This document shows, one piece after another, positions 500-17,282 of a stretch of 18,132 nucleotides of DNA. Where the stretch lies: NCBI GenBank assembly GCA_030616475.1, contig JAUWXF010000054.1, forward strand, positions 1-18,132, in the 5' to 3' direction. The DNA comes from Desulfobacterales bacterium (GTDB lineage: Bacteria; Desulfobacterota; Desulfobacteria; Desulfobacterales; C00003060). Position numbers and translations under genes: made by a program. Each line of letters begins with the position of its first letter. Position 1 is the stretch's first letter. The notes below the pieces were generated by a model. It saw only the letters and a list, made by a program, of their open reading frames with translations. It had not been told where the DNA came from and searched no databases.

Positions 500-781
500 T
501 ATATTTCTATAGCGGGTATCTGGAAGGCAAATGGAGTCAAATCTGAAAAAAAAGCTTTACAATTGCTGTAACGTGCGGAACTTAGTTCGCTTCGCTGCAC
601 TGATTCGGATCCATTTCTCAGAAATCATCGAAAGGCCGCATGCAATCTTGCCTGTGGCCTCTTTTATGTCCCATCCTGTCCATCGTGCAAAAATCCAGAC
701 AGTATTTACTCAGAGACAATAAGACAATAGGCGCTTAGTTCTAAGATTCGCGTTTTTTCTGGCAAGAAATTCTAAAAGACA

Positions 782-878
782 ATCACGAAAACGCAAAAGA
801 TCGAAAGCACGAAATAAAACAACATTCAGACTTTCGTGTCTTCGTAATTTCGTGCTTTCGTGATAAATTTTTTTTGGT
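782..878. repeat. Inverted arrays of CACGAAA-type heptamers forming a hairpin, followed by a T8 run
   Basis: A 14-bp perfect inverted repeat: cgaaagcacgaaat (802-815) and atttcgtgctttcg (847-860). An outer 9-bp pair also exists: atcacgaaa (782-790) and tttcgtgat (856-864). A T8 run lies at 868-875. Confidence 0.7.
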
Positions 879-960
879 TCCGGCCAGTCCGCCTCACTCC
901 GCTTGGCAGGAGGGCGGGCTCGTCCGGGTTAGGGGATTGGGGAAATAGGAAGGGTGTACT

Positions 961-1449
961 GTGGCTTTTGGTAAACAAGATGTAAGAATCCTGGTGGTAG
1001 ACGATGACAAGGAATTCGCAGATCTTCTGGTGGAACACCTGTCGAATCTGGGCTATTCTGCGAAAGCGGCCTACAGTGGGAGTGAAGCTCTCAGCCGGTT
1101 TGAAAACGGGGCCTTCCAACTGGTTATCACCGATCTTAAGATGCCGGATATGGACGGCATGGATCTTCTGGAGGCGGTCAAGGCTCGGGATAAGCAGGCC
1201 GTGGTTATGGTTATCACCGGGTATGGCACTATTGAATCGGCAGTCAAGGCCATAAGGAACGGGGCCTACGACTTTATTACCAAGCCGATCAAGATGGAGG
1301 AGTTGGAGGTTATCATTGAGAGGGCACTGGACAGATACGCCCTCTCGAAGCAGTTGGGTGTTTTCAAGGGGCTCACCCTGGCTCTGATCATATCTGTCCC
1401 GCTGTGGCTCATACTGGGGATTATATTGGCCGTGCTTTGGAGGAGATAA
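961..1449 (+). CDS. Receiver-only response regulator with a C-terminal transmembrane anchor (paralog A)
   Basis: The 162-aa ORF has a GTG start at 961, preceded by AGGAAGGG (947-954). REC hallmarks are present: VVDDD acidic pocket, ITDLKMPDMDG phospho-acceptor Asp, VITGYG Thr and ITKPI Lys. The C-terminus LTLALIISVPLWLILGIILAVLWRR is a single hydrophobic helix with an Arg-Arg end. Confidence 0.9.
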   Translation: MAFGKQDVRILVVDDDKEFADLLVEHLSNLGYSAKAAYSGSEALSRFENGAFQLVITDLKMPDMDGMDLLEAVKARDKQAVVMVITGYGTIESAVKAIRNGAYDFITKPIKMEELEVIIERALDRYALSKQLGVFKGLTLALIISVPLWLILGIILAVLWRR

Positions 1450-1504
1450 GAATTGGGGAATTGAGGGATTAAGTCAAATTTAGGAATTAAGGGATTGTCG
1501 AAAT

Positions 1505-1544
1505 AAGGCCCAAGTCCAGCAGGATTTGGGCCTTTCTTTTTCTT
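1505..1544 (+). terminator. Rho-independent terminator of response regulator A
   Basis: Stem aaggcccaagtcc (1505-1517) pairs with ggatttgggcctt (1522-1534), including one G-T wobble. The loop is agca. The tail is tctttttctt. Confidence 0.8.
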
Positions 1545-1678
1545 GGTTCAGAGACAATCCCGCTGAGTGAAAATGAACACGATCATTCTCCACAACCACG
1601 AGAGCAGGATTGTCGGGGGGGTGGGCACGGTGATCCGAAAATACAGGTATCACTGAAAGTGTGGGAGGGGACTTAACC

Positions 1679-1975
1679 TTACGCCGTCACGTAGATCCCC
1701 CTGCCGGCTCGCTTGATTTTGCCCTGCTTAGATGCCTTGAAGACGATATTCCTGATCTTCTTGTCTTCAAACCCAGTCTTTTTGACCAACGTAGGAACGT
1801 CAACACCCTTCTTCGATCTCTTGATAATGTTCACAACCTGGTCAGTGGCGGTCTGCGCAGCAGCTTTCTTCTTGGCAGGGGCTTTTTTCGCAGCAGCTTT
1901 TCTGGCGGGCTTAGCCTTGGCCTTTGCTTTCTTGGCCGCCTTGTTTTTCTCAAACTTTTCAACTGCCTTTTCAGA
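1679..1975 (-). pseudogene. Lys/Ala-rich histone-H1-like DNA-binding protein ORF without a usable in-frame start (possible frameshift)
   Basis: The minus-strand frame is open from the codon after a TGA (1973-1975) to the TAA (1679-1681). It translates as SEKAVEKFEKNKAAKKAKAKAKPARKAAAKKAPAKKKAAAQTATDQVVNIIKRSKKGVDVPTLVKKTGFEDKKIRNIVFKASKQGKIKRAGRGIYVTA. An ATG at the complement of 1977-1979 is one base out of frame (ATG ATC TGA). The first in-frame start is a GTG at 1834, which gives 51 aa. The two + strand ORFs at 1661..1981 and 1713..2063 are low-complexity shadows of this frame. Confidence 0.5.
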
Positions 1976-2114
1976 TCATAAACACTATCATAATAAAATA
2001 GTTGAAAGTAGTTCGGTCAGCCTGAAACAAGAGGAATATTTTGATTTGCTCAATAACATTTAGTTGGACCACTCAAAATCAATCGGCCTTTTGCATGTTA
2101 TCAATCGTATGACT

Positions 2115-2219
2115 CCAAACGATCAGAACCAATCAAACGACCAAAACCAATTCAACCAATCAAACCAACCAAACAACTCACAACGAGCTTTCAGCTTTCA
2201 GCCTTGAGCCTTCAGCTGC
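2115..2219. repeat. Tandem heptanucleotide arrays (AACCAAT-type, then GCTTTCA-type)
   Basis: The sequence reads ccaaacgatcagaaccaatcaaacgaccaaaaccaattcaaccaatcaaaccaaccaaac, then gctttca gctttca gccttga gccttca (2187-2214). Confidence 0.85.
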
Positions 2220-2240
2220 TCCATGCTCTCTGTCCGCTCC

Positions 2241-2361
2241 TATGGATTCACTAGTAACCAATAACGTTTCTCTCTGTCATCTGCCCTCTGTCATCTGACC
2301 TCTGCCCCATGCTTGAGACAAAGAGCCGAAACGAGAAACTTATAAAGTAAAGAACGTCCCC
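2241..2361. repeat. Bipartite conserved non-coding element, copy 1
   Basis: The 5' box is tatggattcactagtaaccaataacgtttctct. The 3' box is gagaaacttataaagtaaagaacgtcccc. They flank a TGTCATC-type heptamer core. The same boxes recur at 4301-4415. Confidence 0.65.
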
Positions 2362-2412
2362 TTTTTGCTTTTTGCCAAAGTCACCAAGATTCTCTAAAAG
2401 ATAAGAAAATTC

Positions 2413-2441
2413 TTGACAAATGGTAACTTTACTGTTACTTT
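2413..2441 (+). promoter_or_regulatory. Promoter plus dyad operator of the killer/antidote operon
   Basis: TTGACA (2413-2418), 17-nt spacer, TACTTT (2436-2441). The dyad GTAAC (2423-2427), N6, GTTAC (2434-2438) lies in the spacer. GTG 2452 is about 10 nt past the -10 box, so the mRNA would be near-leaderless. Confidence 0.55.
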
Positions 2442-2451
2442 GTAAATGTCC

Positions 2452-2781
2452 GTGATATAGATAAAGGAATACATAGACGAGACCGGCAAATCGCCTTACG
2501 CAGTTTGGCACGACCACTTGGATGCGAGGGCAGCTGCAAAAGTCACTACAGCATTGTATCGGCTTGAGCAGGGAAACTTTTCGAATACCAGTGGTGTTGG
2601 AGGTGGAGTTTTCGAGTACAAAATTGATTTTGGCCCCGGCTACCGGATCTATTTTGGCAAAGACGGCGAGCGTATTGTGATCATTTTGGGCGGCATAACA
2701 AAGAAACGCCAACAACAGGATATAAATGCCGCAAGGGCTTACTGGCAGGACTACAAAGCACGGAAACGAAAAAGTAAGTGA
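2452..2781 (+). pseudogene. Addiction-module killer protein (RelE/ParE superfamily, Gp49/HI1419 type) with an in-frame TAG at codon 3
   Basis: The frame reads GTG ATA TAG ATA AAG..., which translates as M I * IKEYIDETGKSPYAVWHDHLDARAAAKVTTALYRLEQGNFSNTSGVGGGVFEYKIDFGPGYRIYFGKDGERIVIILGGITKKRQQQDINAARAYWQDYKARKRKSK. The GPGYRIYF and GG.K..Q..DI motifs and the RLEQGNF segment are typical of this family. The track start (TTG 2518) would remove about 20 family-typical N-terminal residues. Confidence 0.7.
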
Positions 2782-2790
2782 GGTGCTGCA

Positions 2791-3141
2791 ATGGTCTTAA
2801 CAAGAGACTTTCGGAAAACCATACAAGCTCGTGCAAAAAGGGACCCTGCATACCGCGAAGCTATGTTGACTGAGGCGGTGGACTGTTTCCTATCTGGTGA
2901 CGTAGAAGTTGGAAAAGCAATGCTGCGCGACTATATAAACGCCACCATCGGCTTTGAGGCACTCGGTCGGCAGATCGGTAAACCCAGCAAAAGCCTTCAT
3001 CGCATGATAGGTCCATCTGGCAATCCCAAAACAAGCAACTTTTTCGAAATTCTGCATTTCTTACAGCGAAACGAAGGACTGGAGCTTGTGGTTACCGCCC
3101 GCCATCACACGCATGGTGGGATACACGGGGTTGCTCCATAG
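2791..3141 (+). CDS. Cognate HTH antidote / transcriptional regulator of the killer protein
   Basis: 116 aa. It has a GAGGTG RBS at 2780-2785, and the ATG lies 9 nt after the killer stop. TRDFRKTIQARAKRDPAYREAMLTEAV...LRDYINATIGFEALG...SKSLHRMIGPSGNPKTSNFFEIL resembles the DNA-binding partners found downstream of Gp49-like toxins. Confidence 0.8.
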   Translation: MVLTRDFRKTIQARAKRDPAYREAMLTEAVDCFLSGDVEVGKAMLRDYINATIGFEALGRQIGKPSKSLHRMIGPSGNPKTSNFFEILHFLQRNEGLELVVTARHHTHGGIHGVAP

Positions 3142-3182
3142 AAATAGGGCGAGCACTATTCAATCATTAACCTCGACTTTTT

Positions 3183-3304
3183 CGCTTTGAGCTTTGAGCT
3201 GTTCTTATGCGCTCTGCCCTCTGTCATCTGCCCTATGTCATCTGTCATCTGACCTCTGTCATCCGTCATCTGCCATCTGAGATGCCCTATGCGCTCGGCC
3301 CTCC
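3183..3304. repeat. Tandem heptanucleotide arrays (GCTTTGA, then TGTCATC/TGCCCTC types)
   Basis: The sequence reads cgctttgagctttgagctg, then ctgccctctgtcatctgccctatgtcatctgtcatctgacctctgtcatccgtcatctgccatctga. Confidence 0.85.
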
Positions 3305-3347
3305 GATTTTTGGGATGCCTGGTTAAGAAGATGACAAATTCGAAATG

Positions 3348-3376
3348 TTGTGATAAAGTTTTTAAAAGTTTGTAAT
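3348..3376 (+). promoter_or_regulatory. Candidate promoter upstream of the RHH stub and hicBA
   Basis: TTGTGA (3348-3353), 17-nt spacer, TGTAAT (3371-3376). Pattern match only. Confidence 0.35.
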
Positions 3377-3390
3377 TTGAAGGGTAATTA

Positions 3391-3549
3391 ATGAGAACGA
3401 TTCAAACCGAGGTGCCGGAGCAGCTTTATAAGAAGGCCAAAGCTTTGGTTCAAGTCCTTTCGCATTTTTTATGGATGGGAGGTAACCATGAAAACTTTAA
3501 GAGCGGACAGAATAAAAATAAGAATAGGAAACGTATGGGAAAGCCCTGA
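3391..3549 (+). pseudogene. Remnant of a ribbon-helix-helix-type antitoxin (only about the first 21 codons look native)
   Basis: This is a 52-codon ORF that I translated myself. MRTIQTEVPEQLYKKAKALVQ resembles the N-terminal beta-strand and helix of RHH antitoxins. It then turns into non-protein-like sequence that overlaps the hicB RBS and start. Confidence 0.3.
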
Positions 3550-3868
3550 ACTCCATATTTTGTTGACTCAGGAGGATGACATCGTTGTAGCCCGCTGCCT
3601 GGATTTCACAGTTTCTTCCCACGGTAAAGATGTCCAGGACGCTTTAAAATCGTTGGCAACCTCTATCAAAGAATATATTTTGACGGCAGTAGAAAACGAT
3701 GCCATTAATACAATTTTTGATCCAGCACATGGAAAGTATTGGAGGATGTATAATGAATTGGAAGCTCGACATTCCAGCGGCAAACTTAAACGGTCTCTAA
3801 AGAAATCCCTTAAATCGGTTCCCTATGAGAATATACAACAATCAACCGCTGAAATAAGCTATGCCTAA
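3488..3868 (+). CDS. hicB: HicB-family antitoxin
   Basis: 126 aa, with a GGGAGG RBS at 3476-3481. HILLTQEDDIVVARCLDFTVSSHGKDVQDALKSLATSIKEYI matches the HicB N-terminal fold pattern. It overlaps the downstream HicA gene by 8 nt (ATGCCTAA). Confidence 0.65.
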   Translation: MKTLRADRIKIRIGNVWESPELHILLTQEDDIVVARCLDFTVSSHGKDVQDALKSLATSIKEYILTAVENDAINTIFDPAHGKYWRMYNELEARHSSGKLKRSLKKSLKSVPYENIQQSTAEISYA

Positions 3869-4079
3869 GCCGCTGGAATTAAGAAAAGTCGTTAGAGTAC
3901 TTAAGAAATATGGCATCGTTTACGTAACTGGCAAAGGCAGACATCCCAAGTTTTATGATCCCGAAACCCATAAGTCGTACCCCATCAAATCCCATGGCAA
4001 AAAGACGCTTATTTTGTCCTACGCCCTTGATGACAGGATAGAGAAGTTTGACTTGCCGGGTGATGTATTCGATAGATAG
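3861..4079 (+). CDS. hicA: HicA-family mRNA interferase toxin
   Basis: 72 aa. LRKVVRVLKKYGIVYVTGKGRHPKFYDPETHKSYPIKSHGKKTL matches the YcfA/HicA pattern (G-x-G-x-H-x-K/F ... H). It is translationally coupled to hicB. Confidence 0.7.
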   Translation: MPKPLELRKVVRVLKKYGIVYVTGKGRHPKFYDPETHKSYPIKSHGKKTLILSYALDDRIEKFDLPGDVFDR

Positions 4080-4120
4080 GGTATTTTACTATATTTCTGT
4101 TTTTCCTCTTCTCAGCACTT

Positions 4121-4296
4121 TTCAGCCGTTAGGCTTATGAGCTTTTTCCCTTTCAGCTTTCAGCTTATTCCGCCTTCAGCTTCGAACGAAGTGCTCCTAA
4201 CGCCTAACGCAGCGCAGCGATACCCTCTTGCCCTCTGTCATCTGTCATCTGAGCTCTGCCCTCTGCCCTCAGCTCTCTGACCTCTGTCATCAGCTC
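4121..4296. repeat. Tandem heptanucleotide arrays (GCTTTCA, CGCCTAA, TGTCATC, TGCCCTC types)
   Basis: The arrays read ctttcagctttcagctt, cctaacgcctaacgcagcgcagcg, and ctgtcatctgtcatctgagctctgccctctgccctcagctctctgacctctgtcatc. Confidence 0.85.
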
Positions 4297-4300
4297 CTTA

Positions 4301-4415
4301 TATGGGTTCCCTAATAACCAATAACGTTACTCTTCGCGCTCTGCTCCATGCCCTATGCCCTATGCCCTTTGCGCCATTGAAAAAATGAGAAACTGGAAAA
4401 GCAAGGGGCGTCCCC
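4301..4415. repeat. Bipartite conserved non-coding element, copy 2
   Basis: The 5' box tatgggttccctaataaccaataacgttactct matches copy 1 at 29/33 positions. The 3' box is gagaaactggaaaagcaaggggcgtcccc. The core is a different heptamer family: gccctat gccctat gcccttt (4350-4370). Confidence 0.65.
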
Positions 4416-4427
4416 AATCTCACTCTC

Positions 4428-4516
4428 TTGCCTTATGCCTTAAACGTACTGGTCCTAGCGCCTAACGCAGCGCAGCTTTGCCCTATGCGCCATGCGCCAT
4501 GCGCCATGCGCCCCGT
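4428..4516. repeat. Tandem heptanucleotide arrays (CGCCTAA/CGCAGCG, then GCGCCAT x3-4)
   Basis: gcgccat gcgccat gcgccat gcgcccc lies at 4487-4514, preceded by gcgcctaacgcagcgcagc. Confidence 0.85.
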
Positions 4517-4546
4517 GCTTTATAGTTTGAACGGTGATAGACCTGA

Positions 4547-4575
4547 GAATTGTCAAGGGGAAAGATTTGACCCCT
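4547..4575. repeat. Left copy of a 29-bp inverted repeat (internal dyad GTCAA-N10-TTGAC)
   Basis: The sequence is gaattgtcaaggggaaagatttgacccct. The reverse complement of 5774-5802 is gaattgtcaaaatgaaagatttgacccct, a 25/29 match with 10-nt and 15-nt perfect blocks. Confidence 0.8.
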
Positions 4576-4753
4576 ACCCACCCCAGATTACACGGATGAA
4601 AAACAAATTTAGGGATTTAGGGATTGGGGAATTCAAGTCAGTAGGGCACGGTGAAATATGTCATTTCGCGTGGTAGGCAGTATGCAGAGAAGAGCTGATA
4701 AGCTGGTAAGTTGATGAGTTGATGAGCTGTTCTCTTTCCAGGACAAAAAAGGC

Positions 4754-4782
4754 TTGACATGCGTAACCTTACTGGTTACACT
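4754..4782 (+). promoter_or_regulatory. Promoter plus dyad operator in front of the truncated higA
   Basis: TTGACA (4754-4759), 17-nt spacer, TACACT (4777-4782). The dyad is GTAACC (4763-4768), N5, GGTTAC (4774-4779). The ATG at 4790 begins 8 nt after the -10 box, which implies a leaderless mRNA. Confidence 0.55.
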
Positions 4783-4789
4783 AAACTTA

Positions 4790-4993
4790 ATGATCAAAAC
4801 CTTATCCAAGATTGTAAATGAACGTGGTTCTATCAGTTCAGGCATGGCCTTGCGTTTATCACGGGCGTTTAACACGTCTCCGGAACTTTGGCTGAATTTA
4901 CAAAGGAACTATGACTTGTGGCATGCCTCTCACAATTCTAATGATTGGAAAAATGTCCAACCGGTAGAGAGACAGGTTAACGCTCTGGCATAA
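4790..4993 (+). pseudogene. higA: N-terminally truncated HigA-family (XRE HTH) antitoxin, 67 codons
   Basis: The ORF reads MIKTLSKIVNERGSISSGMALRLSRAFNTSPELWLNLQRNYDLWHA... The motifs I.NG.R.IS...ALRL...F.TS.E.WLNLQ..YDL match the C-terminal half of HigA. The usual N-terminal roughly 30-35 residues, including the first HTH helices, are absent. The track start (TTG 4754) lies inside the -35 box. Confidence 0.65.
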
Positions 4994-5094
4994 GATTGTG
5001 TGCTTTCCACTCTATCTGAACCATTCCCTTATTTCCGCATATCTATTCCCTGGCCTCCAAAAATTGGTTTTATGAGCTGATAAGCAGGTGAGCT

Positions 5095-5583
5095 ATGGCT
5101 ATTGATAGAGAAGATGCAAGAATTCTGGTGGTAGATGATGATAAGGAGCTGGCCGATGGGCTGGTAGAGTCTTTGTCGAATCTGGGCTATTTGGCGGCTG
5201 CTGCTTATGGGGGCCGTGAAGCGCTGACCAGGTTTGAACAGGGTGCCTTCCAACTGGTTATCACCGATCTCAAGATGCCGGACATGGACGGTATGGAGCT
5301 TCTGGAGGCGGTCAAGGCGCGGGATAAGCAGGCCGTGGTTATCGTCATCACCGGTTATGGCACTATCGAATCGGCAGTCAAGGCCATAACGAACGGGGCC
5401 TACGACTTTATCACCAAGCCAATCAAGATGGAGGAGCTGGAGGTCATCATTGACCGGGCACTCGAAAGACATGCGATGTCTAAACAATTGGGGGTCTTCA
5501 AGGGCTTGACCCTGGCTCTGATCATCTCTGTCCCGCTGTGGCTCATACTGGGCATTGTACTTGCCGTGCTTTGGAGGAGATAA
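5095..5583 (+). CDS. Receiver-only response regulator with a C-terminal transmembrane anchor (paralog B)
   Basis: 162 aa with an ATG at 5095. By my manual alignment, 140/162 residues are identical to paralog A. All REC catalytic residues and the C-terminal hydrophobic helix are conserved. Confidence 0.9.
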   Translation: MAIDREDARILVVDDDKELADGLVESLSNLGYLAAAAYGGREALTRFEQGAFQLVITDLKMPDMDGMELLEAVKARDKQAVVIVITGYGTIESAVKAITNGAYDFITKPIKMEELEVIIDRALERHAMSKQLGVFKGLTLALIISVPLWLILGIVLAVLWRR

Positions 5584-5638
5584 GAATTGGGGAATTGAGG
5601 GATTAAGTCAAATTTAGGAATTAAGGGATTGTCGAAAT

Positions 5639-5676
5639 AAGGCCCAAGTCCGAGAGGATTTGGGCCTTTCTTTTTT
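5639..5676 (+). terminator. Rho-independent terminator of response regulator B
   Basis: Same stem as at 1505-1534: aaggcccaagtcc pairs with ggatttgggcctt. The loop is gaga instead of agca. The tail is tctttttt. Confidence 0.8.
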
Positions 5677-5773
5677 ATGGCTCAAAGACAATTCCACTGA
5701 GTGGAAAAGACGAGCAAAACAAAGGGGTTAGATCTCAACATTTGACCGCAGTAAAATAAGCCAAGTCTCGATC

Positions 5774-5802
5774 AGGGGTCAAATCTTTCATTTTGACAAT
5801 TC
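5774..5802. repeat. Right copy of the 29-bp inverted repeat
   Basis: The sequence is aggggtcaaatctttcattttgacaattc. See 4547-4575. Confidence 0.8.
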
Positions 5803-5830
5803 ATTCAGAAGAGTGAGGCTACCTTTGTAA

Positions 5831-6271
5831 GTTTTATACCAGAAAAAAATAGAACCTCAACATTTTGCTGCCTGTATCAGTACAGACAAAGGGATAAGAC
5901 AGATTGATGCTGTCAGGCATTTCAGTTACCATAATACAATGGAAGAAGAATTGACCAAAGTCCCACTTCCCAACTCGTATCAAGAAACAGTCTATGTGAT
6001 GCATGCACCGCCGTTTCAAACCAATTTGGACGTCTTGTATGACAGGCGCTCGGTTGGAAGCCGCGCCATCCGGCAATTCATCGAAAAAAACCAGCCTTAC
6101 CTGACTTTGCACGGCCACATACATGAAGCGCCTTCACGTTCCGGAAGTTACTGGGACAAAATCGGCGATACCGTTTGCGTCAATCCCGGCCAGGCGACCA
6201 AGGACCTCCATGCCGTCATGTTTGAGCTGGAAGATGTCTTGAATACAATGAATCATACCATCTTTGGATAA
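5831..6271 (+). pseudogene. Metallophosphoesterase (calcineurin-like), C-terminal fragment only
   Basis: VYVMHAPPFQTNLD...GS.AIRQFIEKNQPYLTLHGHIHE...VCVNPG carries the late motifs (H-x-P and GHxH). The N-terminal metal-binding motifs (DxH, GDxxDR, GNH[DE]) are absent. The frame is open only back to a TAA at 5828-5830. The first ATG is at 5939. Confidence 0.7.
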
Positions 6272-6487
6272 CTTTGATATTATAGGAATTTCCTTTTTTG
6301 CCCCACCAAACCCTCCCCCTGTTCCAGACTGGATAACATACCTGACAGACCGATTTGAGCGTCTAACACCCTGGTGTTCTTCTCGAGTTTATTGCCGCGG
6401 TTGGACGTTCTGTAGCCCTTGATTTTGCCGGCCATTATGCTTATTGTAACATAGTACAAAGAGCTAAGTTCCGATCTGGGGAATGGC

Positions 6488-6739
6488 ATGAACAAAATGC
6501 GTGTAAAGTGCATCAAGTGCAAAAAGGAATGGCAAAAAGATTCCTCGCTTTCTTGGGGACGTGAGGATATTACATCATCGCTGTGCGATTCCTGCTTTAG
6601 AAAAACAATCACTCCTGTCATTCACAGGAAACAATTGCATAGAGGTCATTTAGACTGTTTTGACAAACCGGGCAACTACTGCGATGAATTTCAGTGCAAG
6701 TACAGAAAATGGTGTTCCCGCGCAAAAGAAGCAGCATAA
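6488..6739 (+). CDS. Small Cys-rich protein (83 aa), putative zinc-binding, function unknown
   Basis: GGGGA lies 7 nt upstream of the ATG. Cysteines form CxxC (CIKC) ... CxxC (CDSC), then C-x10-C-x4-C-x6-C (DCFDKPGNYCDEFQCKYRKWC). I recognise no family. Confidence 0.55.
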   Translation: MNKMRVKCIKCKKEWQKDSSLSWGREDITSSLCDSCFRKTITPVIHRKQLHRGHLDCFDKPGNYCDEFQCKYRKWCSRAKEAA

Positions 6740-9308: not shown

Positions 9309-9371
9309 GATATCCATGGTAGACTCGTTTGCGTAGCTATTAATAGATCCAACCATTAGAGAGGAGGCAAA

Positions 9372-9515
9372 ATGACACGATCTTATGCCGTGCATTTTCC
9401 TCAACGCTCACCACAAGGCTCTTTACCCATCCAGCTTGAGGTGGTTTGGAACCTATTATGTTACCCGATGGACTTTTTTGTCTTAGGGGCAATTGCAGGA
9501 TTCTCTGATGACTAA
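9372..9515 (+). CDS. Small ORF (47 aa) overlapping the start of the hybrid kinase gene
   Basis: A strong GAGGAGG lies at 9361-9367, 4 nt before the ATG at 9372. My translation is MTRSYAVHFPQRSPQGSLPIQLEVVWNLLCYPMDFFVLGAIAGFSDD. The stop at 9513-9515 overlaps kinase ATG 9508 (GATGACTAA). It is below the size cutoff of the ORF track. Confidence 0.35.
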   Translation: MTRSYAVHFPQRSPQGSLPIQLEVVWNLLCYPMDFFVLGAIAGFSDD

Positions 9516-12999: not shown

Positions 13000-13005
13000 A
13001 TATAT

Positions 13006-13036
13006 TAGCCACAGACCCACACAGACGGACACAGAC
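13006..13036 (+). repeat. 31-nt direct repeat 1 (TAGCC + CACAGAC heptamers) flanking the GxxExxY gene
   Basis: tagccacagacccacacagacggacacagac matches 13458-13488 at 29/31 positions. It is followed by the hairpin ttttgcccgagc/gctcggccaaaa (13038-13066). Confidence 0.85.
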
Positions 13037-13097
13037 ATTTTGCCCGAGCGACCTGCTCGGCCAAAAGGCGTCATCCGCCACAGGCGGATAGGATGAG

Positions 13098-13460
13098 ATG
13101 GATATTAACGAACTGACTTACCTAATCAACGGCGCGATCTTTGAAGTAAATCGTGAACTCGGAGCGGGTTTTCTGGAGAAAGTCTATGAGAACGCCTTGT
13201 TGTTTGAGCTAGTGGACAGGGGACTCAAGGCCGAGAATCAAGTCCCGATTAAGGTCAAATACAAGGGTAAAGAAGTCGGGGAGTATTATGCAGATATCGT
13301 CGTTGAGAACCAGGTCATTTTGGAAATTAAGGCGGTTGATTCGTTACAGAAAATTCATGAAGCCCAGTTACTGAACTACCTCAAGGCCAGCGGATATAAA
13401 ATCGGTCTTTTGGTTAATTTTACGCATCCAAAAGCTGAAATTAAGAGATTTATTCTTTAG
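13098..13460 (+). CDS. GxxExxY protein (PD-(D/E)XK nuclease superfamily)
   Basis: 120 aa. GAGFLEKVYENAL contains the eponymous G-x-x-E-x-x-Y. YYADIVVENQVILEIKA supplies the D...E-x-K nuclease motif. LLNYLKASGYKIGLLVNF is the typical C-terminus. Confidence 0.9.
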   Translation: MDINELTYLINGAIFEVNRELGAGFLEKVYENALLFELVDRGLKAENQVPIKVKYKGKEVGEYYADIVVENQVILEIKAVDSLQKIHEAQLLNYLKASGYKIGLLVNFTHPKAEIKRFIL

Positions 13461-13488
13461 CCACAGACCCACACAGAAAGACACAGAC
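13458..13488 (+). repeat. 31-nt direct repeat 2 (includes the GxxExxY stop codon)
   Basis: The sequence is tagccacagacccacacagaaagacacagac. It is followed by a perfect 12-bp hairpin: ttttgttcggcc (13490-13501) and ggccgaacaaaa (13507-13518). Confidence 0.85.
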
Positions 13489-13670
13489 GTTTTGTTCGGC
13501 CAAGTCGGCCGAACAAAAGGTACTTTCGCTCCGCGAAGAAAACCCATTTTCTTATTGGCGTTAATTCAAGAAGATTACTACTATGATAGCGCCGTGTTTG
13601 AAGTAAAAATAAGGTACTAAAATTGCCCGAATGGCATACGGTTTTTCCTTGGCCAGTGTCGGCCAAGGAA

Positions 13671-14984: not shown

Positions 14985-15344
14985 TTATTTCTTGAAGAAT
15001 ATATATACGGCCAACCCGAGCAAGATCACGGCGAAAATCTTCTTGAAATTGGCGGTCGAGACATGCTCTATAAGGCGTGCTCCGATCTGGGCACCGATGA
15101 TGCCGCCGACACCGAGTAGAATCCCTGCTTTATAGTCCACATTAGCCAATTTATTATGAGCTAAAAGGGCAGAAAGGGAGATGACCACGATGGCAAGAAA
15201 GGAGGTGCCTACGGATTTCTGTGCCGAATACCCAAGGAAAAGCAAGAGGGGGACCATCAGAAAGCCGCCCCCCAAACCGGAAAAAGATGCACCAACACCA
15301 ACGAGAATCCCGCAAAAAACCATCATCAACACATTTGCGTTCAT
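14985..15344 (-). CDS. TauE/SafE (DUF81) family anion exporter, half-size (119 aa)
   Basis: It has four hydrophobic segments. GVGASFSGLGGGFLMVPLLLFLG and SVGTSFLAIVV are typical TauE/SafE motifs. An AAGGAAG RBS lies 6 nt upstream of the ATG. Confidence 0.85.
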   Translation of the reverse strand: MNANVLMMVFCGILVGVGASFSGLGGGFLMVPLLLFLGYSAQKSVGTSFLAIVVISLSALLAHNKLANVDYKAGILLGVGGIIGAQIGARLIEHVSTANFKKIFAVILLGLAVYIFFKK

Positions 15345-17029: not shown

Positions 17030-17122
17030 GGAATTGAGGGATTGCGAATTGAGGAATTTAGGAATTGACGGAATCACCAATGTTTTAATTCCTCAATCCC
17101 TGAATCCCTAAATTCCTCAATT
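17030..17122. repeat. Inverted GGAATTG/GGGATTG heptamer arrays forming a long imperfect hairpin
   Basis: The left arm includes aattgaggaatttaggaatt (17047-17066). The right arm aatccctaaattcctcaatt (17103-17122) is its reverse complement at 19/20 positions. Confidence 0.75.
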
Positions 17123-17282
17123 ATTTGTCAGTATTGAAAAACAGTGTATTCTAAATATTTTCTGCCAGAAAAAACACGAACTTCACAACTAAGGGACTAA
17201 GATAAGAATCGGTACTTCAGGCTGGAGCTACCCGCACTGGAAAGAACTGTTCTATTTTTGAAAAATCCCAGCCGTCAAATTG

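Follow-up and report, generated by a model that had tools for sequence, protein, structure and literature searches.

The tufA/tufB pair and the rRNA operons are the classic cases of ectopic gene conversion and concerted evolution, and CpxQ, SdhX, DapZ and similar molecules represent the regulatory small RNAs (sRNAs) that derive from the 3′ untranslated region (UTR) of an mRNA. Most terminators keep their structure but not their sequence. That gene conversion keeps repeated bacterial genes similar to one another is well established (PMC5485169, PMC6002687), as are intrinsic terminators and variable islands rich in toxin-antitoxin (TA) modules (PMC7167474, PMC11551772, cited for the islands). 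Here we analyse an 18,132-nt stretch of DNA from a Desulfobacterales bacterium (contig JAUWXF010000054.1 of assembly GCA_030616475.1), hereafter the window, which carries two copies of a response-regulator (RR) gene, RR-A and RR-B. Their 3′ ends share a perfectly identical tail although the coding sequences (CDSs) have diverged by 16%, and we think that this tail is probably the product of ectopic gene conversion between old paralogues, the converted tract ending inside a conserved terminator. In the following, winA and winB denote the two window copies and L001 to L016 the loci of relatives; all of the sequences compared are metagenome assemblies. The features of the window are collected in Table 1.

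Each repeat unit consists of a 162-aa receiver gene, a 54-nt purine-rich spacer and an intrinsic terminator with a 13-bp stem. The repeat finder returned the direct pair 953-1252 and 5087-5386 (83% identity, spacing 4134), and MAFFT alignment with an ungapped comparison extended it to ~948-1583 and ~5082-5717, collinear and with zero indels at a period of 4134 nt, in agreement with the direct repeats of this period described in an earlier reading of the sequence (the original prediction). That reading had the similarity running from the start codon to about 125 nt past the stop; the regions farther 5′ are indeed unrelated, but the likeness begins ~8-13 nt before the start codon and dies out ~134 nt past the stop codon. 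The two homologous copies thus lie on the same metagenome-assembled contig, at 961-1583 and 5095-5717. Both open reading frames (ORFs) are 489 nt long and encode 162 aa; 77 of the 489 nt differ, 49 of them at third codon positions, and the identity is 84% at the nucleotide and 86% at the amino-acid level. Start codon aside, a recount gave 22 differing residues, 14 of which fall within residues 2-50, the same numbers as had been obtained by hand alignment. Because the overall nonsynonymous and synonymous divergences of the coding regions are 0.087 (dN) and 0.563 (dS), we consider RR-A and RR-B to be old and constrained.

The divergence is unevenly distributed. Synonymous divergence is 1.10 in codons 2-50, 0.28 in codons 51-120, 0.80 in codons 121-156 and 0 beyond, so that of the 5′-to-3′ identity gradient proposed earlier the identical tail stands and the smoothness does not. 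The perfect run, 1429-1517 in copy A and 5563-5651 in copy B, comprises 89 nt, namely the final 21 nt of the CDS including the stop codon and 68 nt beyond; the identity after the stop had been recognised before, at a length of 72 nt, and the string then quoted is 71 nt with its TAA. The identical tract is far longer than the divergence of its flanks predicts. Four-fold degenerate sites differ at 22 of 68 positions (32%), and at this rate the probability of zero changes in the 68 non-coding nt is 3e-12; at the overall CDS divergence (15.8%), that of an 89-nt perfect run is 2e-7.

The closest relatives of copy A change along its length. Its first 150 nt are 92% identical to P0010 of L016 and to a 5′ fragment in L001, compared with 73% to copy B; nt 151-360 are ~93% identical to many family members and ~93% to copy B; and nt 361-468 are 96% identical to L002 and L013, compared with 83% to copy B. 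The run 1429-1517 then agrees at 89 of 89 positions with winB and with the B copies of L001 and L016, while L005, a relative of the A locus, has another spacer. Directly 5′ of the hairpin, TCGAAATAAGG is common to winA and the B group and TCGGAATGAGG is present in both A-locus relatives, and 3′ of the T-run winA sides with these relatives (L005 and L001 870-1030). In the post-terminator flank of the A locus, the first ~38 nt resemble copy B and the remainder, 1584-1658, matches only L005 and L001 870-1030 (~88%), with no match in copy B. Copy B is a mosaic too: the last 69 nt of its CDS are 88% identical to the L001 B copy and 94% identical to P0010 of L016, compared with 98-100% to the L001 B copy in the rest of the CDS. 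When the PHI test was applied to 13 family members, the observed value was 0.362, against 0.459 +/- 0.010 after permutation, and none of 2000 permutations was as low (p<0.0005). Because the tract and its flanks have different relatives and the PHI signal of the family is significant, the identical tail is best explained by ectopic conversion, and the earlier suggestion of gene conversion from the 3′ side is borne out in this respect. The low-dS patch at 1111-1320 may be a second conversion tract, although this part of the CDS is the most conserved one in all pairs (84-94%).

One could envision the following sequence of events. Purifying selection would keep one strong terminator nearly invariant at the end of each RR family member; this terminator, together with the conserved coding end for the membrane helix, would give the dispersed copies stretches of perfect identity, between which RecA-type ectopic gene conversion would swap patches repeatedly. 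At the A locus, a tract of at least 89 nt, from the CDS end through the spacer to the 5′ arm of the hairpin, would have been overwritten in this way, with its 3′ boundary placed in the hairpin loop, and the tail would be identical in spite of 16% coding divergence because a B-type 3′ end had been copied onto A. We infer the conversion mechanism, its direction from B-type to A, and the role of the terminator as the homology anchor from these patterns of relatedness. The B-type spacer is present in the B orthologues of three genomes, which suggests that a B-type copy was the source and A the recipient; at its CDS end, however, copy A is closest to the L002 type (97%), and the donor may be a copy outside the contig. 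Three points weigh against this account. The donor is uncertain as judged from one 18-kb contig, given that copy B would match the CDS end of A less well than would an L002-type paralogue elsewhere in the genome; the spacers of L004 and L014 are identical at 42 of 49 positions, compared with 60% of four-fold sites, which means that some selection on the spacer may contribute; and, all sequences being metagenome assemblies, it is possible that an assembler switched between loci at shared repeats.

The hairpin (1505-1534 in copy A, 5639-5668 in copy B) has 13 pairs, 7 of them G-C, a 4-nt loop and a T-run on its 3′ side, with a folding energy of −23.4 kcal/mol (z = −4.7). A G+C-rich stem-loop with a U-tract is thus found 3′ of each gene, as in intrinsic terminators, and we predict this function from the sequence. 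As had been stated before, the only changes within the hairpin are those in the loop, AGCA in one copy and GAGA in the other. The stems do not vary among nine contexts (winA, winB, L001 at two sites, L002, L004, L005, L008, and L014/L016), whereas the loops do (AGCA, GAGA, GGGA, AGGA, GGCA). The hairpin folds well on both strands, and in both the window and L014 the genes on either side of it converge. At the orthologous loci L004 and L014, the glycosyl-transferase, WecG, Bac_transf and RR genes are collinear and 80-84% identical. The terminator blocks of these two loci are identical at 46 of 46 nt despite an identity of 60% at four-fold sites, so that the terminator hairpin is clearly under strong purifying selection across species. 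A scan for the hairpin pattern found one locus in the genome, one in the metagenome and zero in the viral collections, and every occurrence is tied to an RR locus or an RR remnant; these counts rule out that the hairpin is a genome-wide repeat resembling repetitive extragenic palindromes (REP) or miniature inverted-repeat transposable elements (MITE).

In every pair examined, the conservation of the tail exceeds that of the CDS (99/100 positions against 89% for L002 and winB, 93/95 against 91% for L014 and winA, and 90/95 against 84% for L004 and winA), and one possible hypothesis is that the 3′ UTR is itself a functional RNA, an sRNA or a CsrA/Hfq-type element, kept by strong purifying selection and not by recombination. 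The spacer would suit such a role in that it is single-stranded and purine-rich and carries four GGA motifs ahead of the strong hairpin and the U-tail, and in L004 and L014 the spacer, like the terminator block, exceeds the four-fold sites in identity, albeit with a 9-nt indel and ~70 extra nt of repeats. We think that this explanation is unlikely, however, for reasons that lie mostly in the spacer. Its 54 nt are unstructured (fold z = +0.31); an Rfam scan (E <= 1) found no family for the tail, the sole match in the window being a group II intron fragment at 9370-9480; and a promoter consensus scan of the CDS end found no site, which is weak evidence. The spacer has been replaced by unrelated sequence in L005, in P0010 of L016 and in L013, is interrupted in L002 by a palindromic insertion of 72 nt and in L004 by indels, and lies 740 nt of repeats away from the hairpin in L008. 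It is conserved mainly among close relatives, so that a candidate seed accompanies the terminator in this close group only and partly in L004/L014, and its 8-mers belong to a class of repeats that recurs in other intergenic parts of the window, for example at 17030-17125. Moreover, selection alone would leave unexplained why the flanks of copy A group with other loci. Of the selection on the 3′ UTR that the original prediction had offered as its second option, the part that concerns the hairpin is thus upheld and the part that concerns the spacer is not. A composite possibility, which we regard as quite improbable, is that the shared tail, with its GGA-rich single-stranded spacer, invariant hairpin and U-tail, is an RNA module in the mRNAs of all the paralogues that is spread and maintained by conversion. 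Such a module could be a 3′UTR-derived sRNA or a sponge for a CsrA/Hfq-type protein, released from the mRNAs or acting within them, and, if the tail is indeed a functional RNA, it would be a regulatory element common to all RR paralogues.

The history of the locus was traced with a whole-region BLAST comparison of the window to L001, a 32.7-kb contig from JGI. RR-B and its flanks are collinear with L001 at 98-99%, and the RR-B orthologues are 99% identical in L001 and 97-99% identical in L016. RR-A-like 5′ ends and flanks are found in L005, L016 and L001. The A locus of L001 consists of the terminator and its downstream flank (870-1030), which adjoin a PEGA gene with no RR gene present, and a 145-nt RR 5′ fragment follows a Bac_transf gene elsewhere in that contig (12726-12882); in L016, the counterpart of the RR-A upstream region (5867-6489) is retained, and the RR coding sequence that should follow is deleted exactly at the start codon. 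From the A-locus terminator to RR-B, L001 has 7.6 kb with different cassettes, compared with 3.5 kb in the window. The island content therefore differs between related genomes, and the locus is dynamic. These data bear on the view, taken in the original prediction, that a recent duplication brackets a 3.5-kb insert. A recent 0.6-kb duplication together with a 3.5-kb TA element, followed by fast coding divergence, for example through positive selection on the N-terminal surface of the receiver, would account for direct repeats around TA genes and for the clustering of amino-acid changes in the first 50 residues. Yet the differences are mostly synonymous (49 of 77 at third positions, with dS of 0.56 overall and up to 1.1 in the 5′ part), the closest relatives of the two copies in other genomes differ, and in the nearest relative RR-B is preceded by a 7.6-kb island of other content, with no RR-A at the site. 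No transposase ORF, integrase or terminal inverted repeat was found in or around 1584-5081. We therefore hold a recent duplication to be extremely improbable, and this claim of the earlier reading has to be abandoned.

A technical origin deserves the same scrutiny, because the window is an entire 18,132-bp metagenome-derived contig and related contigs break in or beside RR genes (L016 starts in RR-B, and L007 ends just past the gene). An assembler might have crossed between paralogous loci at the shared 89 nt or at the hairpin, in which case both the juxtaposition of the copies and the mosaic would be non-biological; the apparent switch point of copy A does fall in a repeat. Such a chimera would require a second switch, however, and no repeat in common with other loci is found where the RR-A segment begins on its left side (524-537). 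Furthermore, many assemblies made independently, and proteins of several origins, likewise show mosaicism, and RR-B with its flanks is collinear with L001. A chimeric assembly thus seems very improbable to us, and gene conversion between old paralogues remains the explanation that we favor.

Two further comparisons concern the same loci. A simple deletion relation between the window and L001 at the A locus was considered and rejected, as L001 has 60 nt of unrelated sequence in place of 537-1497. Among database proteins, no A/B recombinant of the kind that a deletion between the copies would produce was found, the nearest protein to RR-A being 91% identical. We also observed that L016 (3-4949) and L001 (8520-12911) each have RR-B and a second RR copy in direct orientation ~3.9 kb apart, the second copy being P0010 in L016 and the 5′ fragment in L001, and that the pair brackets PemK-like and BrnT/CopG TA modules and a Bac_transf gene, which is the same kind of layout as in the window.

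Several repeated elements were noticed beside the RR tails. At 17030-17125, upstream of an AlgH-like gene, two octamer tracts of the type (GGAATTGA)n form an inverted pair; their 35-nt arms are 80% complementary and separated by 6 nt, and they are sequence kin of the RR spacer. Upstream of RR-A, at 883-919, there is a G+C-rich palindromic element with a counterpart in L002 (2551-2587); it is the reverse complement (92%) of part of the 72-nt insertion that splits the RR tail in L002/L003, and similar CCTGCCCGCC...GGCGGGCAGG elements occur in the tails of L009-L012. Palindromes of this type may be a small mobile hairpin element. A motif, GGGGTCAAATCTTTC(C/A)T(C/T)TTGACAA(A/T)T, which contains a TTGACA-like hexamer and a short inverted repeat, recurs 3′ of RR genes or remnants at several loci (window 5775-5805, L013 ~2370-2410, two copies in L001 12883-12960, and L016 ~6495). 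An antisense ORF at 1480-1653, seemingly conserved in L005, was rejected as a coding sequence, since the substitutions are spread evenly over the codon positions (6/7/7 and 6/14/7).

Table 1. Positions, strands and supporting evidence of the features discussed in the window
Feature	Coordinates	Strand	Evidence or remark
Upstream region of RR-A	537..960	+	same sequence in L016 (5867-6489, 95-99%)
RR-A, GTG start, stand-alone REC with C-terminal transmembrane helix	961..1449	+	PF00072 E = 6e-29, residues 10-119
Probable gene-conversion tract (CDS end, spacer, 5′ hairpin arm)	1429..1517	+	identical to 5563-5651
Spacer A, purine-rich, degenerate 8-mer repeat GRATTNRG, unstructured	1450..1503	+	TRF period 8 at 1450-1468
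Predicted intrinsic terminator A (13-bp stem, loop AGCA, T-run)	1505..1545	+	motif and fold
Post-terminator non-coding flank of the A locus	1546..1658	+	comparison with B, L001, L005
Lys/Ala/Pro-rich histone-H1-like ORF	1679..1975	-	no family match; 94% to L001 3052-3435
Heptamer tandem tract (TCTGTCA/TGCCCTC type), cassette boundary	2268..2330	.	window/L001 breakpoint at 2361
RelE/ParE-family toxin	2452..2781	+	TIGR02683 E = 1.5e-24, profile positions 18-95 only
Putative partner antitoxin, 116 aa	2791..3141	+	position only; no family match
Heptamer tandem tract, cassette boundary	3201..3291	.	breakpoint 3217 inside tract
HicB-like (3488-3868) and HicA toxin (3861-4079)	3488..4079	+	PF07927 29.7 bits, cutoff 27
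Heptamer tandem tract, cassette boundary	4215..4305	.	repeat finding
HigA antitoxin fragment	4754..4993	+	TIGR02607, profile positions 23-80 of 81
RR-B, paralogue of RR-A, ATG start	5095..5583	+	PF00072 E = 1e-28
Tract partner in copy B	5563..5651	+	identical to 1429-1517
Spacer B, identical to spacer A	5584..5637	+	alignment
Predicted intrinsic terminator B (same stem, loop GAGA, T-run)	5639..5679	+	motif and fold

The DNA between the copies had been described as TA modules and gene debris, a description with which our results agree. The RelE/ParE toxin gene has an in-frame TAG at codon 3 (2458-2460, translation VI*IKEYIDETG) and is probably a pseudogene; the whole module (2452-3141) is absent from L001. 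HigB and the N-terminus of HigA, which are intact in L001, have been deleted in the window, which lacks the counterpart of L001 7837-8220, so that only a truncated HigA is left. The third module, HicB/HicA, is 98% identical to L001 6780-7371 with equal gene lengths, and its HicA scores above the Pfam cutoff and has an intact upstream partner; it is apparently intact. Two of the three modules are thus degraded, and only one looks functional as judged from its genes. The earlier reading had suggested that TA modules counter-select deletion of the segment, a role for which this one module would be the candidate. The histone-H1-like ORF (KAAKKAKAKAKPARKAAAKK...) has no ATG, GTG or TTG before codon 48, and two small genes are called in L001 at the corresponding position; ORF 1679-1975 is possibly gene debris. 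L001 in turn has cassettes that are absent from the window, namely DUF4062-HATPase, a TumE pair and a second HicAB. Because the content differs from that of L001 and modules have decayed, we conclude that the segment is a TA cassette island of fast turnover and not a single insertion.

The boundaries of the cassettes are marked by heptamer tandem tracts. In L001, such tracts lie between TA cassettes at 4629-4661, 5599-5686 and 6519-6572, and the indel breakpoints between the window and L001 (2361 and 3217) are in or beside heptamer tracts. Intergenic heptamer repeats of similar appearance are known from Beggiatoaceae and cyanobacteria (PMC4679880). Neither the window nor the gene calls of L001 include an integrase-like ORF or Pfam match, and the repeats that separate the cassettes are of the heptamer tandem type (attC structure models were not run), which does not fit an integron array. 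An integron or transposon origin of the intervening segment was accordingly rejected, there being no integrase, transposase or bounding inverted repeats, and the supposed duplication being 620 nt long and 16% diverged. Related to the RNA module considered above, and in our view just as improbable, would be an integrase-independent system that shuffles TA cassettes and uses the invariant terminators and heptamer tracts as its homology anchors. Elsewhere in the window, intergenic heptamer or octamer tracts are formed by ATGCGCC, CAGCTTT, ATTTAGGG and AGCTGATA. A 55-nt direct repeat was also noted (4172-4226 and 4430-4484, 258 nt apart); by comparison with L001 (7464-7518), ~200-260 nt of repeat-rich non-coding DNA appear to have been duplicated locally in the window.

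In RR-A and RR-B, a receiver domain is joined to a hydrophobic C-terminal helix, with GLTLALIISVPLWLILGIILAVLW read from the sequence at the C-terminus. Both copies have the receiver fold (PF00072) and its motif residues: a DDD acidic pocket, the phospho-acceptor Asp in ITDLKMP, the T/S in ITGYG and the Lys in TKPIK. A search of NCBIfam found no whole-length curated family for the protein, the matches being limited to the REC portions of NtrC/AtoC-type regulators, and an exact-sequence look-up of the RR-A and RR-B proteins (P0011 and P0001 in our protein collection) gave no match. A protein search at E <= 1e-10 returned more than 2000 homologues, 120 of which were listed; among these 120, most are 160-173 aa long, and those with names come from Desulfobacterales and other deltaproteobacterial metagenome-assembled genomes. 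In distant relatives (L006, L009-L012, L014, L016 and L004), a glycosyl-transferase cluster ends in a CoA_binding_3/Bac_transf sugar-transferase gene with a single RR copy just behind it; in L006, L009 and L010 the RR gene is in turn followed by DivIVA and T2SSE genes, which are joined in L009 and L010 by a YggT gene.

Four family members are held by three contigs whose coverage matches in two samples (~40x and ~14x). One of these contigs has P0003 beside TPR genes, another has P0008 after a Bac_transf gene, and the third has the RR-B orthologue and, after another Bac_transf gene, P0010. Judging from the coverage, one genome probably lies behind the three contigs, and the population nearest to the window carries three or four dispersed RR copies. 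It is likely, as one part of the explanation given above, that RR-A and RR-B are long-diverged paralogues of a multi-copy Desulfobacterales family, and both appear still to be functional. The family, in which a REC domain is combined with a membrane anchor and a link to exopolysaccharide (EPS) genes, is uncharacterised.

Other parts of the window also carry signs of insertion or decay. The Rfam match mentioned above (9370-9480, minus strand) is to group-II-D1D4-2, with 43.8 bits (gathering score 36, E = 4e-6); it is intergenic, upstream of a gene for a PAS-HisKA-HATPase-REC hybrid kinase, and is probably a fragment of an intron, as there is no ORF for an intron-encoded protein nearby. Between lipB and lipA lies a PDDEXK_3 (GxxExxY-type) gene (13098-13460) that is bracketed by 64-nt direct repeats (13005-13068 and 13457-13520, 77% identical), each of which holds a CACAGAC-type repeat and a hairpin; the segment 13005-13520 looks like an inserted cassette. 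A TauE/SafE gene (14985-15344, minus strand) is truncated to profile positions 2-111 of 237, and a metallophosphoesterase fragment (5939-6271, plus strand) retains only the C-terminal part of its domain, which points to further gene decay in the region.

What the window records is real but fairly ordinary genome dynamics, and its unusual points are modest: the non-coding nature of the tract, the sequence conservation of the terminator, and an uncharacterised family. The RR pair offers a clean, well-delimited case of concerted evolution of the non-coding end of a gene in an uncultured Desulfobacterales lineage, and it illustrates that nucleotide-level conservation of a terminator can go well beyond what neutrality predicts. 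For annotators and assemblers it carries a warning, as this receiver family comprises multiple, mosaic copies, RR genes tend to be places where contigs break, and the orthology of these genes cannot be read from one segment alone. It also draws attention to two unstudied subjects, a widespread family of membrane-tethered receivers beside exopolysaccharide clusters and TA cassette islands bounded by heptamer tandem repeats.

With bacterial paralogues known to undergo conversion, the RR copies share patches of identity in otherwise diverged sequence, relatives that are incongruent along the gene, and a non-reciprocal exchange in which the intervening DNA is not deleted. They differ from the classic cases in that the best-kept tract is non-coding (spacer and terminator arm) with one boundary in the terminator loop and, unlike tuf and the rRNA genes, the RR family is a small signalling gene and not a component of translation, the conversion in this case being deduced from sequence. 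The terminator has the G+C-rich stem, the tetraloop and the U-run after the stop region in common with Rho-independent terminators that have an upstream A-tract; those could in principle act bidirectionally, and the window hairpin is predicted to fold on both strands. Unlike in usual terminators, the stem sequence does not change between paralogues, nor between loci with only 60% identity at four-fold sites. The tail as a whole resembles sRNAs of the CpxQ/SdhX/DapZ type in being a conserved mRNA 3′ end in which a single-stranded stretch precedes the gene's own terminator, but its candidate seed region is conserved in close relatives only, and it has no Rfam family.

The island, for its part, resembles the TA-rich islands and sedentary chromosomal integrons described previously (PMC11551772, PMC7167474) in its small same-strand TA modules, strain-variable content and inter-cassette repeats. 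Unlike in sedentary integrons, no integrase was found in the window, the repeats are heptamer tandem tracts and not attC-like imperfect palindromes, and two of the three modules have decayed. The receivers themselves are most easily compared with stand-alone receivers of the CheY, DivK and CpdR type, with which RR-A and RR-B share a single REC domain and the same motif residues, and from which the RR family is set apart by a conserved C-terminal transmembrane helix and a neighbourhood of EPS glycosyl-transferase genes.

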